Virus record (IMG/VR): IMGVR_UViG_2778261036_000011
Length of the DNA: 14,400 bases
Source: a virus
Taxonomy: Duplodnaviria; Heunggongvirae; Uroviricota; Caudoviricetes
Reading direction: 5' to 3' (one strand)
Every line of letters starts with the position of its first letter. The stretch's first letter is position 1. Shown here in pieces: positions 8,025 to 10,714 of the stretch. Below the pieces are notes generated by a model. That model saw only the letters and a list, made by a program, of their open reading frames with translations. It was not told the DNA's origin and ran no database searches. A program made the translations under genes and the position numbers.

Positions 8025-8222
8025 TTATGCCGCAGCACTGTTAGTCTTTTGATATAAAGACACGTCAACTTTCAGTTTCCCGTTAGTAATTTTTTCTAAC
8101 TGGTACGCTCGGCCTTCAGGAATAATCTCAGGCCACTCTGAAACAGACGGATGCTTAATACCTAGGGCTTCGGCGGTTTTACAAACTCCGCCGAAATAAT
8201 TAATCACGTCGGATTTCCGCAT
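8025..8222 (-). CDS. cro: Cro-like repressor
   Basis: 65 aa basic protein with an HTH-like segment (VCKTAEALGIKHPSVSEW), transcribed divergently from cI directly from the operator region. Confidence 0.65.
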   Translation of the reverse strand: MRKSDVINYFGGVCKTAEALGIKHPSVSEWPEIIPEGRAYQLEKITNGKLKVDVSLYQKTNSAAA

Positions 8223-8254: not shown

Positions 8255-8319
8255 ATGTAGGATATCCAACATATCAATGTCAAGAATCCTACATGAGCAT
8301 GTGGTAGGATTGCCTACAT
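8255..8319. promoter_or_regulatory. oR operator cluster with divergent pR and pRM
   Basis: Three operator sites: ATGTAGGATATCCAACAT (8255..8272), right half-site ATCCTACAT (8286..8294), TGGTAGGATTGCCTACAT (8302..8319). pR -35 TTGACA on the minus strand at 8278..8283, with -10 about 17 bp downstream overlapping the first operator. Confidence 0.6.
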
Positions 8320-8971
8320 GATGAACATGAGTGATCGTATTCGCCAAAGGCGAAAAGAACTGAACCTGACACAACAAGCACTGGCTGATTTGACTGGTGT
8401 GAACCGTGTCACGGTTACTGGATGGGAAAAGGACGACTACCAACCAAATGGAGCCAACCTTCAAGCCCTAGCCAACGCACTTAAATGCGATCCTCTGTGG
8501 CTTGTTAGCGGAAAAGGCTCGCCTGAACCAAAGATAAATCTAAAACCTGAAATATTCGCAGTTAAAAAAGTCCCCCTCATCTCGTGGGTTCAGGCGGGTT
8601 CATGGACAATGACGGAGCCTGGTGTCAGGAAAGAAGATGCTGAAGAGTGGGTTTATACTACCGCCCTTGTATCAGAAATGGCATTTGCACTACGGGTCCG
8701 TGGTGATTCAATGACCAATCCCCTCGGCTCACCATCGATACCAGAAGGTTCTATCGTTATCGTAGAGCCAGATATTATTGATACAGAGTGTATTAACGGA
8801 AAAATCGTTGTTGCCCATATCAATGGTGGGCAAGAAGCGACACTCAAAAAATTTGTTGAGGACTGGCCGAACAGGTATCTCGTCCCACTAAATCCTAACT
8901 ATAAAACTATTGAATGCGGTGAGAACTGCAGAATAGTTGGTCTTGTCAAACAAGTAATAATGGATTTTTGA
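8318..8971 (+). CDS. cI: cI-type prophage repressor (HTH plus S24 LexA-like autopeptidase)
   Basis: 217 aa; N-terminal HTH (LTQQALADLTGVNRVTVTGWE), Ala-Gly cleavage site (VQAGSW), Ser/Lys dyad (RVRGDSM ... ATLKKF) in the C-terminal domain. Confidence 0.9.
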   Translation: MMNMSDRIRQRRKELNLTQQALADLTGVNRVTVTGWEKDDYQPNGANLQALANALKCDPLWLVSGKGSPEPKINLKPEIFAVKKVPLISWVQAGSWTMTEPGVRKEDAEEWVYTTALVSEMAFALRVRGDSMTNPLGSPSIPEGSIVIVEPDIIDTECINGKIVVAHINGGQEATLKKFVEDWPNRYLVPLNPNYKTIECGENCRIVGLVKQVIMDF

Positions 8972-9033: not shown

Positions 9034-9087
9034 ATGTAGGATAACCAACATAAACTCTTGACACTCACATGTTGGATATCCTACATT
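9034..9087 (+). promoter_or_regulatory. oL operators and pL promoter
   Basis: Operators ATGTAGGATAACCAACAT (9034..9051) and ATGTTGGATATCCTACAT (9069..9086), the same palindrome family as oR. -35 TTGACA at 9058..9063, with -10 (CTACAT/TACATT) about 17-18 bp downstream inside the second operator. Confidence 0.6.
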
Positions 9088-9246
9088 TGTTTTTAGAGTT
9101 GTGGTGAATGCGCAGGCTGATGCGCGAAAGACATTGCAGCTATTGCGGAAAAGAGCTGTTCGGCGGGGCAATTAAACGCCCGTGAGAGTCTGAAATAACC
9201 GCAAGCCGGAGATCAGCACCGGTCACCACAACAGCCACTGCTTTGG

Positions 9247-9380
9247 CGGTACCAGTTTGTACACTTGCTTCCGGCTGGTACCGCTCTTTTTACAAAACAG
9301 AGAAGAGCATCACCGGACGACGGGCTCATAACCCAATCCATCCGGGCGGCTGCCACCGCAGGTGTTCTTCTCTGTTTTGT
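9247..9380 (+). promoter_or_regulatory. Structured pL leader: hairpin plus T-run, boxA-like CGCTCTTTTTA, and a long composite stem-loop
   Basis: Hairpin cggtaccag(9247..9255)/ctggtaccg(9275..9283) followed by ctcttttt; boxA-like cgctcttttta (9283..9293); 15-bp stem 9292..9306 pairing with 9366..9380 around a GC-rich loop of about 59 nt with internal complementarity (ccgga 9314..9318 / tccgg 9341..9345). Confidence 0.35.
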
Positions 9381-9428
9381 GGAGAAACCAACCGACCTTG
9401 CAGGGTCGATATGATGAGGAGCAGCAAA

Positions 9429-9791
9429 ATGGCTAGCGAACGCAGTACTGATGTGCAGGCATTTATCGGGGAGCTGGACGGCGGCGTATTTGAAACCAAA
9501 ATCGGCGCAGTTCTCAGTGAAGTCGCTTCCGGTGTGATGAACACGAAAACCAAAGGGAAGGTCTCACTCAATCTGGAAATCGAACCGTTTGATGAGAACC
9601 GTGTGAAAATCAAACACAAACTCTCATATGTTCGCCCGACTAACCGCGGGAAAATTTCCGAAGAAGACACCACCGAAACGCCGATGTATGTCAATCGCGG
9701 TGGTCGCCTGACTATTCTGCAGGAAGACCAGGGACAATTACTGACTCTTGCCGGTGAACCTGACGGAAAACTCCGCGCAGCAGGTCATTAA
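9429..9791 (+). CDS. First gene of the leftward operon; hypothetical 120 aa protein (YfdP-like by size and context)
   Basis: Start at ATG 9429 with a GAGGA ribosome-binding site 8 nt upstream; the track ORF start at 9243 would translate the structured leader. Resemblance to the E. coli CPS-53 yfdP..yfdT gene set is from recollection of lengths and order only. Confidence 0.5.
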   Translation: MASERSTDVQAFIGELDGGVFETKIGAVLSEVASGVMNTKTKGKVSLNLEIEPFDENRVKIKHKLSYVRPTNRGKISEEDTTETPMYVNRGGRLTILQEDQGQLLTLAGEPDGKLRAAGH

Positions 9792-9856: not shown

Positions 9857-10423
9857 ATGTCTCAGAACTTAGACGCAACCGCAATTAATCAAATCCATGC
9901 CCTTATTTCTGCTCAGGGTGTTAATGAAATTATCAGTAAGATTGGTGCCGATGCTGTGGCATTGCCTGAGAATTTCCGCATTCATGATCTGGAAAAATTT
10001 AATTTAAATCGCTTCCGTTTCCGTGGTGCGCTTTCCACTGCCAGCATCGATGACTTTACCCGTTATTCTAAAGATCTTGCAGATGAAGGCACCCGCTGCT
10101 TTATTGATGCTGATAATATGCGTGCCGTCAGTGTGCTTAACCTGGGTACTATTGATGAACCAGGTCACGCAGATAACACCGCCACTCTCAAACTGAAAAA
10201 GACAGCACCGTTCTCTGCTCTGTTGTCTGTTAATGGCGAGCGTAACTCCCAGAAATCACTGGCAGAATGGATTGAAGACTGGGCCGACTACCTTGTGGGC
10301 TTTGATGCTAATGGTGACACCATTCAGGCAACAAAAGCGGCTGCGGCGGTCCGTAAAATCACGATTGAAGCAAACCAGACCGCTGATTTTGAAGATAATG
10401 ACTTCAGCGGCAAACGCTCCTGA
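9857..10423 (+). CDS. Hypothetical protein, 188 aa (possible N-terminal part of a YfdQ-like protein)
   Basis: Clean ORF with a GTGAGGA ribosome-binding site; acidic protein. Stop TGA overlaps the ATG of the next ORF (TGATG). Confidence 0.5.
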
Positions 10424-10680
10424 TGGAGTCTGTCGAAGCGAAGACCAAAGACATTATGCCAGTGGCATTTGAATTTAAATGCATTCCGTTTGAAGGTCTG
10501 AAAGAACGTCCGTTTAAATTACGCCTCAGCATTATCACTGGCGATCGTCCGGTACTGGTTCTGCGCATTATTCAGCTGGAGGCGGTGCAGGAAGAAATGG
10601 CTAACGAATTTCGTGATCTGCTTGTTGAGAAATTCAAGGACAGCAAAGTAGAAACCTTTATTGGTACTTTCACCGCCTGA
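10423..10680 (+). CDS. Hypothetical protein, 85 aa (separate coupled gene or C-terminal part of a frameshifted gene)
   Basis: Protein-like ORF ([85 protein letters not shown]) starting in the TGATG overlap. Confidence 0.4.
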
Positions 10681-10692
10681 TTTCATTACTGC

Positions 10693-10714
10693 AAATGCCC
10701 CTGAGGGGGCATTT
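10693..10714 (+). terminator. Perfect 9-bp palindromic hairpin (weak terminator or RNA element)
   Basis: aaatgcccc-tgag-ggggcattt; the trailing T residues are inside the stem and are followed by atgg, so no strong T-tract. Confidence 0.3.

Follow-up and report, generated by a model that had tools for sequence, protein, structure and literature searches.

RNAs that resemble or mimic a transfer RNA (tRNA) include the thrS operator, viral tRNA-like structures, transfer-messenger RNA (tmRNA), YrlA and the anti-defence tRNAs of phages. In Escherichia coli K1 RS218, a small RNA (sRNA) of 193 nucleotides (nt), sRNA-17, was mapped by 5′/3′ rapid amplification of cDNA ends (RACE) and Northern blotting. 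It lies in a prophage similar to mEp460, immediately upstream of yfdP, and yfdP increased about 95-fold when a cat cassette was put in its place (PMC7719688). For phage LLS, the authors guessed at a put-like mechanism because LLS is without N (PMC12315714). Here we analysed the immunity region of a lambdoid E. coli prophage, a stretch of 14,400 nt from the virus record IMGVR_UViG_2778261036_000011 (hereafter the window), and describe an RNA element in the leader of its early-left promoter pL, which we call Y. The leader as a whole is best explained as a chain of independent RNA modules that is neither a nut nor a put site. What Y does we infer from its anatomy, conservation and context; on these grounds we see an even chance that it is a self-contained tRNA-like RNA, which would be excised and then recognised by a conserved host or defence factor reading the initiator anticodon arm.

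Fold, covariation and loop of the Y element

An earlier, sequence-only reading of this DNA had described a composite stem-loop at 9292..9380. The structure is present, with two inner hairpins and a predicted fold of -45.5 kcal/mol (z = -7.3), but its closing stem has 20 base pairs (bp) and not the 15 bp originally given. Its three helices, P1 to P3, meet in a three-way junction with a single unpaired A between P1 and P2 and another after P3. The parts of Y and of its 3′ flank are the following:

9292-9380, + strand: Y element, a three-way-junction RNA (fold, covariation, covariance model match of 115 bits)
9292-9311/9361-9380: P1, the closing stem of 20 bp, with two G-U pairs
9313-9319/9339-9345: P2, with an internal loop and the tip GGG-CUCAUAA-CCC at 9322-9334
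9321-9334, + strand: P2 tip CGGGCUCAUAACCC, a 3-bp GGG/CCC stem and the 7-nt loop CUCAUAA, with CAU at 9327-9329
9346-9349/9356-9359: P3, with its loop at 9350-9355
9381-9388, + strand: conserved 3′ flank GGAGAAAC (alignment)
9393-9398/9403-9408, + strand: small hairpin with a UUGCAG-type loop (fold)
9416-9421, + strand: Shine-Dalgarno sequence GAGGAG

The tip of P2 is identical over 14 nt to the anticodon stem-loop of one specific tRNA, E. coli tRNA-fMet (metZ, L155:888-964), and the match takes in the three G-C pairs that mark initiator tRNAs. Our first scans for relatives had been selected on the loop motif; the search was therefore repeated with the P1/junction scaffold as its only anchor and returned 77 matches. 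Their loops read CUCAUAA (44), CUCAUUA (15), CCCAUAA (5), CCCAUCA (4) or CUCCUAA (3), to name the commonest, and CAU was retained in 74 of the 77. Scans for anticodon variants found the first base altered in four contigs, the second in four and the third in none, compared with at least 120 for the canonical motif.

Pairing of the three helices is kept up in the relatives. In a MAFFT-based alignment of 28 sequences, 94% of the cells were paired, as opposed to 37-53% with slid partners, and ten pairs were compensated; 0 of 500 shuffles reached this. In a covariance-model alignment of 92 matches (66 distinct), 93% of the cells were paired and 13 pairs were compensated (P1 and P2, five each; P3, three); being fitted to the model, this second alignment leans toward the structure, a bias from which the MAFFT-based count is free. 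Over both alignments, the pairing of slid partners lay at 35-54%. The G-U pairs are consistent with the + strand only. Covariation in relatives, whose absence the sequence-only reading had named among its refuting conditions, is present, in a structure that belongs to another kind of RNA than the one proposed there.

The length of P2 is constant, while P1 ranges from 6 to 20 bp and P3 from 12 to 37 nt, and this contrast points to P2 as the functional arm. As the length steps of P3 are not multiples of three, they exclude, together with the covariation, a coding role. Two frames were ruled out in this way, an in-frame extension of yfdP from TTG 9243 and a − strand open reading frame (ORF) at 9213-9356 that is annotated in mEp460. 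In that phage, mEp460_036 and mEp460_037 are small hypothetical minus-strand ORFs that lie over the terminator/Y region and over pL; both the covariation and the length changes in steps other than triplets speak for spurious gene calls.

Two mismatches within the helices are themselves conserved, the P1 pair 9302/9370 in 60 of 66 sequences and the P2 pair 9318/9340 in 46 of 66, and may be recognition features, for instance for a nuclease. A hairpin with a UUGCAG (or UCCUAA) loop recurs at two places: in other genera it forms the tip of P3, and 3′ of Y it stands ahead of the Shine-Dalgarno sequence, as CGACCUUGCAGGGUCG in the window and as GGCGGUGGCAGCCGCC elsewhere. It could represent a repeated protein-binding hairpin.

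The tip identity raises the question whether Y is a decaying tRNA pseudogene without present function. Some resemblance to tRNA-fMet in the sequence flanking the P2 tip would fit such an origin, as would the tRNA genes that adjoin Y in Klebsiella phages. The compensatory changes, however, keep three helices that are not tRNA helices, and the core is conserved over many genera and on mosaic backgrounds, down to a presence in almost half of the complete E. coli genomes. Y is not a tRNA, and we find the reading of it as a functionless tRNA relic hardly credible.

An Rfam search, suggested by the sequence-only reading, matched no family in the window: Rfam 15 at gathering and permissive thresholds gave only sub-threshold matches that were noise, and five related loci gave only tRNAs. 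Y thus has no Rfam family and is apparently undescribed, as the searchable literature, which is incomplete, gave no account of it by sequence string or by concept. Three further candidates were rejected: a hammerhead core, CUGAUGA, is confined to the Klebsiella form; a likeness of GGCGGTAC to the RfaH ops sequence is partial and not conserved; and pairing of the loop in a pseudoknot, whether with the Shine-Dalgarno sequence or with the 3′ tail, is not kept from class to class.

The pL leader, its terminator and antitermination

An 18-bp palindromic operator, ATGTWGGATAWCCWACAT, occurs at 9034-9051 and 9069-9086, flanking and overlapping pL, and a third copy at 8255-8272 overlaps the divergent pR. 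The pattern gave 6 strand-matches where 0.09 were expected, and this excess over chance shows that pL is genuine and under repressor control. The leader and its promoter are composed as follows:

9034-9087, + strand: pL with two repressor operators (promoter scan, operator pattern search)
9058-9063, + strand: pL -35 box TTGACA, followed by an 18-nt spacer
9082-9087, + strand: pL -10 box TACATT
9097-9290, + strand: leader RNA, the published sRNA-17 of 193 nt (primer mapping, fold)
9245-9291, + strand: intrinsic terminator T, with a 13-bp stem 9245-9257/9273-9285 and U5 at 9287-9291

Over 457 bases at the leader, the window is 100% identical to Stx2c-converting phages and, in part, 99% identical to mEp460, cdtI and the SfV family. 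The structured leader of about 330 nt that had been noticed after pL was borne out, with a minimum free energy of -135 kcal/mol for 9090-9430 (z = -5.5 vs. shuffles) and with the noted feature coordinates right to within 1-2 nt.

The 5′ module of this leader is sRNA-17. The full-length primers published for it match 9097-9129 (+ strand, 1 mismatch) and 9259-9290 (− strand, 0 mismatches), and eleven primers and probes of the same study fall within 9084-9427, with 0-1 mismatch inside the RNA body (PMC7719688). The Northern probe and the primers for reverse transcription and 5′ RACE run antisense to the + strand, those for 3′ RACE sense, so that sequence, strand and ends all agree with the RACE-mapped RNA. 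The RNA extends from about 10 nt past the pL -10 box up to the U-run of the hairpin, and its body closes into a multi-branch fold (9098-9106 pairing with 9228-9236) with the terminator on its 3′ side.

The hairpin with a T-run that had been placed at 9247..9290 proved to be the 13-bp stem followed by its U-run, with a fold of -21.2 kcal/mol (z = -4.7). The 3′ end of sRNA-17 found in vivo lies at this U-run, and the hairpin is therefore a terminator working in vivo (PMC7719688). T is conserved in form, with differing stem sequences: a hairpin with at least four T abuts P1 of Y in 53 of 54 distinct class-1/2 contexts, a count obtained by reading the listed stems and T-runs, where a stricter automatic terminator test passed 18 of 64. 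Y starts one or two bases past the U-run in 53 of the 54 distinct pL-leader contexts. Attenuation, one of the options raised by the sequence-only reading, is supported by this conservation and by the published RNA end: T is an attenuator ahead of the early-left genes, and the 193-nt RNA is made first. Strong attenuation at this point need not be lethal, since the early-left genes of lambda are dispensable for plaque formation.

sRNA-17 itself is already described, and its reading as a pL attenuator is new but ordinary. With this virulence sRNA of the literature re-read as a terminated pL leader, the rise of yfdP in the deletion strain is interpreted differently. The published deletion covers 9123-9240 and retains the terminator. 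On the pKD3 map, cat presumably points toward yfdP in that strain; if this orientation is right, the approximately 95-fold rise is probably read-through from the cat promoter and would then imply only that T is leaky.

The body of sRNA-17 (9097-9245) was found in 818 complete E. coli genomes, compared with 2487 for Y, which shows that the two modules are separable. Part of the leader also circulates on plasmids or phage-plasmids: 237 of 952 matches of the sRNA-17 body were on plasmids, and only 10 of 3319 matches of Y (ecoli_genomes).

The sequence-only reading had placed a possible antitermination element here, either a nutL variant or a put-like RNA as in HK022. Y or the leader could indeed be a put-like RNA, or a nut site for an N-like factor that escaped recognition, given a long operon and no N homologue in the window or in LLS, whose authors speculated on put. 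The missing N-like gene had been observed correctly: among the 20 ORFs of the window, no N-like or Q-like protein was found by PHROGs or Pfam match. The product of the first gene (120 aa) is, as had been said, not arginine-rich; it belongs to the YfdP family, is acidic and is without a Pfam match. One related contig carries Y copies in two operon leaders, and the boxA-like string that had been pointed out, CGCTCTTTTTA, does occur, at 9282-9292, one base from its noted position.

This string, however, consists of the 3′ arm of the terminator and its U-tract, and in relatives it becomes CGTCCTTTTT, CGCACTTTTTT, CGCCCTTTTT or GGCACCTTTTT, so that no conserved, single-stranded CGCTCTTA-like boxA is left. 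A boxB, with a short GC stem and a GNRA-like pentaloop, is absent: directly 3′ of the string stands the 20-bp arm of P1, and the small hairpins have loops of 6-7 nt (CUCAUAA, CUGCCA). As for put, the covariance model of Y found no match in HK022 putL and putR as given in the phage record; nor does the window contain the put consensus string, and an alignment with put shows no similarity. Y begins one base past the U-run of T, a mapped RNA 3′ end, and is thus transcribed only after the terminator that it would have to suppress and that works in vivo (PMC7719688); from this position it cannot rescue transcription at T. Y is present as a single copy, with no second one in the pR arm of the window or in the first 50,000 of the 51,315 bases of the matching Stx2c phage. 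Where Y lies in late leaders, an annotated Q gene stands just upstream, and Q is expected to supply antitermination. The nutL and put-like proposals are thus not supported, and antitermination by Y or the leader in any of these forms is quite improbable.

The genes around the leader are listed below.

8025-8222, − strand: cro-like gene
− strand: cII-like and O-like genes
8318-8971, + strand: S24-type repressor gene (family search)
9429-9791, + strand: YfdP-family gene of 120 aa with its ATG at 9429 (phrog_204; ORF list and PHROG match)
+ strand, 3′ of the YfdP-family gene: YfdQ/DUF2303 gene, frameshifted, and then a YfdR-type 5′-deoxynucleotidase gene

The YfdQ/DUF2303 gene (9857-10680) is split by a frameshift into ORFs of 188 and 85 aa that correspond to profile positions 1-189 and 191-274. 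The gene is intact (275 aa) in mEp460, in LLS and in the Klebsiella-type contig IMGVR_UViG_3300029616_000040 (L100), and it is therefore probably a pseudogene in this prophage. The operon hairpin that had been noted at 10693..10714 exists as AAAUGCCCCUGAGGGGGCAUUU, with a 9-bp stem and no U-run, upstream of yfdR. A near-identical hairpin stands directly 3′ of Y in some E. coli variants (the 9518 region of L158; those ending GGAGAAACTAACCGCCCCTACG) from which yfdP and yfdQ are absent. Such hairpins may lie where gene cassettes have been joined by recombination.

Distribution and genomic settings of Y

Y is present in 2487 of 5426 complete E. coli genomes (46%), Shiga-toxin phages included, with a maximum of five copies, and in all ten of the E. 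coli matches listed it is without annotation. Among prophages, its range covers at least 14 genera of Enterobacterales. Pattern scans over viral contigs, and over a single genome for each species, recovered it from Escherichia, Shigella, Salmonella (ST64B), Citrobacter, Enterobacter, Kosakonia, Leclercia, Mixta, Phytobacter, Pseudescherichia, Pseudocitrobacter, Buttiauxella, Erwinia, Klebsiella, Raoultella and Pantoea. The upstream region of yfdP in the K-12 prophage CPS-53 is without Y, through rearrangement.

A BLAST search against phages found the core of Y at about 82% identity in Klebsiella and Pantoea phages, where it lies in the late leader and not in that of pL. In the Klebsiella phages Y follows Q, tR′ and tRNA-Asn and/or tRNA-Arg, and at the Pantoea PA-1 locus it stands immediately 3′ of the late terminator. 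The Klebsiella-type P1 has 6 bp (GGCCUG/CAGGCC) and begins 7 nt past the CCA with which a tRNA, or what remains of one, ends. RCCA comes after this stem in 12 of 13 sequences, and conservation ends exactly at the CCA, with at least five different sequences downstream; another terminator stands between Y and the holin gene. One viral contig has a pL-type and a late-type copy of Y on the same strand. Y is therefore portable between pL and late leaders. The Pas sRNAs (Zhu et al. 2026) were considered as the same element and rejected, as they belong to another locus, near Q and the holin gene.

In the Klebsiella-type contig L100 (3536-14703), the operon that begins past the repressor gene and a pL-type Y passes, all on one strand, through yfdP, yfdQ, ParB-like and NinG genes to a Q-like gene and then a late-type Y. 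Its early-left-type genes are co-linear with Q and the late leader, unlike those of lambda, which reflects either a genuinely different layout or a rearrangement of the prophage.

Within about 50 nt downstream of the pL-leader Y always come a small hairpin, a Shine-Dalgarno sequence and the start of a yfdP-family gene. With the thrS operator, which mimics a tRNA anticodon arm, as an analogy, this arrangement would suit a translational operator of the yfdP-family gene that binds YfdP, the methionyl-tRNA synthetase (MetRS) or the 30S subunit. Against it stands the complete genome of Klebsiella phage GZ7, which has the canonical lambdoid layout and one Y, in the late leader, but no yfdP or yfdQ anywhere; on this ground we reject Y as a YfdP operator. 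In addition, Y is fused in some E. coli variants (L158) to the hairpin from upstream of yfdR without yfdP or yfdQ, and the complementarity of the loop to the start region is not conserved. Taken as a whole, whichever of these ligands were bound, the operator reading is very improbable.

The arrangement of terminator and Y in LLS is as in the window. The leaders of ST64B, phiNP and LLS are longer, 500-900 nt (L126 1935-2645, L128 1830-2710 and L157 2630-3170, respectively), and hold two tandem units, each of a terminator with U-run, a long stem and GGWGAAW. What follows the first of these units is homologous to the 5′ end of the leader in the window, GUUGUGGUGAAUGCG. Upstream of the units, a further conserved sequence, AGCGAACAGGCAGGACGCCCACGAAGTAGCCGCC..., marks a region that could be another structured RNA.

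Possible roles of Y and comparison with known systems

The reading of Y as a tRNA-like RNA, which we favour, would run as follows. Transcription from pL first gives the RNA of about 193 nt (9097-9290) ending at T, and only transcripts that read through carry Y. T would be passed by partial read-through; no cis antitermination device is evident. Y would be a tRNA-like product of the lytic phase rather than a cis antiterminator. The window form would probably be cut out by RNase III via P1, a candidate duplex for this enzyme with its 20 bp and two G-U pairs; the RCCA form, whose P1 has only 6 bp, would probably be cut out by tRNA-processing enzymes. A factor that reads the anticodon arm of tRNA-fMet would then probably bind or cut Y instead, candidates being VapC-type nucleases, MetRS and the P site of the 30S subunit. 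What leads us to favour this reading is that Y occupies two sites that are strongly transcribed only in lytic growth, one of which is also a cargo site for phage tRNAs, and that only the anticodon-like arm is constrained.

A number of points weigh against it. Of 77 copies, 9 have a C at the position of U33, and CAU is replaced by CCU in three contigs, which is unexpected for a strict tRNA mimic, and the mimic stem has just 3 bp. ARAGORN finds no tRNA in the window, and Rfam RF00005 is silent at E<=10 on the window element and on the Klebsiella form. The Y of the window has no CCA end and finishes ...GUUUUGU-GGAG, without an RCCA acceptor. No discrete Y RNA has been reported. For the passage of RNA polymerase through T, partial read-through is the simplest assumption, and the rise of yfdP in the deletion strain is no measurement of T. 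Finally, a cis role in processing, stabilisation or Rho shielding would explain equally well why Y constantly stands after a terminator and ahead of the first ORF.

Y may accordingly be purely a cis element of processing or stability, that is, an RNase III site or a tRNA-like punctuation mark that would set a new 5′ end, protect the mRNA downstream or, by keeping the long untranslated leader folded, prevent the loading of Rho. Its likeness to the tRNA-fMet loop would then be incidental or left over from an origin in a tRNA gene. Its constant place, 3′ of a terminator (or tRNA array) and 5′ of the first ORF in a long operon, speaks for this, as do the 20-bp duplex of P1 and the highly structured leader as a whole; precedents for RNase III sites in phage leaders are known from the lambda N leader and from between the genes of T7. 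However, a role as duplex or stabiliser alone should require neither a near-invariant P2 tip nor an arm of fixed length over at least 14 genera, while P1 shrinks from 20 to 6 bp and P3 is free. In the Klebsiella type, the end of conservation exactly at RCCA and the further terminator ahead of the holin gene likewise do not suit it. The cis explanation accounts for the position of Y and not for its invariant loop; we consider it possible but doubtful. Should it hold, Y would define early-left expression behind the terminator in lambdoid phages without N (SfV, ST64B, mEp460, LLS and many Stx2c phages).

If, instead, Y acts in trans as a mimic of tRNA-fMet, phage tRNAs would be joined by a new class of effector RNA, for counter-defence or host take-over. 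Within the tRNA-like reading, Y might more specifically be a phage-made decoy of the initiator-tRNA anticodon arm that diverts a factor recognising the anticodon stem-loop of tRNA-fMet, for example PIN nucleases of the VapC/MvpT type; we advance this version tentatively and think it rather unlikely. VapC reportedly cuts tRNA-fMet between A38 and C39, and Y has the same bases at these positions, A9331 and C9332. In Salmonella and Shigella, the anticodon stem-loop of tRNA-fMet is cleaved by VapC toxins, as are structures of this kind in general (PMC7180214). Both genera are hosts of Y-bearing phages, and this target range makes the decoy the most interesting specific version. If the decoy is true, Y would protect translation initiation during phage growth and would constitute an RNA counter-defence in almost half of the sequenced E. 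coli.

Compared with the systems described so far, the locus shares single traits with several. In the published view, sRNA-17 is a free-standing, ArcA-regulated, trans-acting sRNA, and neither a pL leader or attenuator nor Y is mentioned (PMC7719688); the promoter-operator region upstream of sRNA-17 in RS218 is unlike that of the window and of another immunity type. The pL leader is similar to lambda 6S RNA and to StxS from pR′-tR′ (PMC7547250) in that a terminator close to the promoter gives rise to a small stable RNA and keeps the operon blocked in the absence of read-through, and in Pantoea and Klebsiella phages Y lies downstream of exactly this late terminator. The promoter in the window, in contrast, is a repressor-controlled pL without a known Q- or N-type factor.

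With HK022 putL and putR (PMC9378689), Y shares the nature of a structured, protein-independent early-leader RNA in a lambdoid phage without N and, in the related contig with two copies, the presence in two leaders. The put RNAs, however, consist of two stem-loops in about 70 nt, before terminators and at or near the transcript start (PMC9378689), whereas Y comes after the first terminator and is built as a three-way junction closed by a long stem. The put RNAs also depend for their action on the zinc-binding domain in the beta′ subunit of RNA polymerase. Lambda nutL and the RNase III site of the N leader resemble the window in their position between pL and the first gene, in a boxA-like string and in a long duplex, which in Y is a candidate RNase III substrate; unlike in lambda, the string in the window is non-conserved and inside a terminator, and it comes with neither boxB nor N. 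Y differs from the tRNA-like RNAs, namely the thrS operator, viral tRNA-like structures, tmRNA, YrlA and the phage tRNAs directed against tRNA-targeting defences, in having no D or T arm and, in the window, a 20-bp stem in place of the acceptor end. Like them, it presents an exact anticodon stem-loop, and the Klebsiella-type Y also has an acceptor-like stem with RCCA and lies in a phage tRNA cluster.

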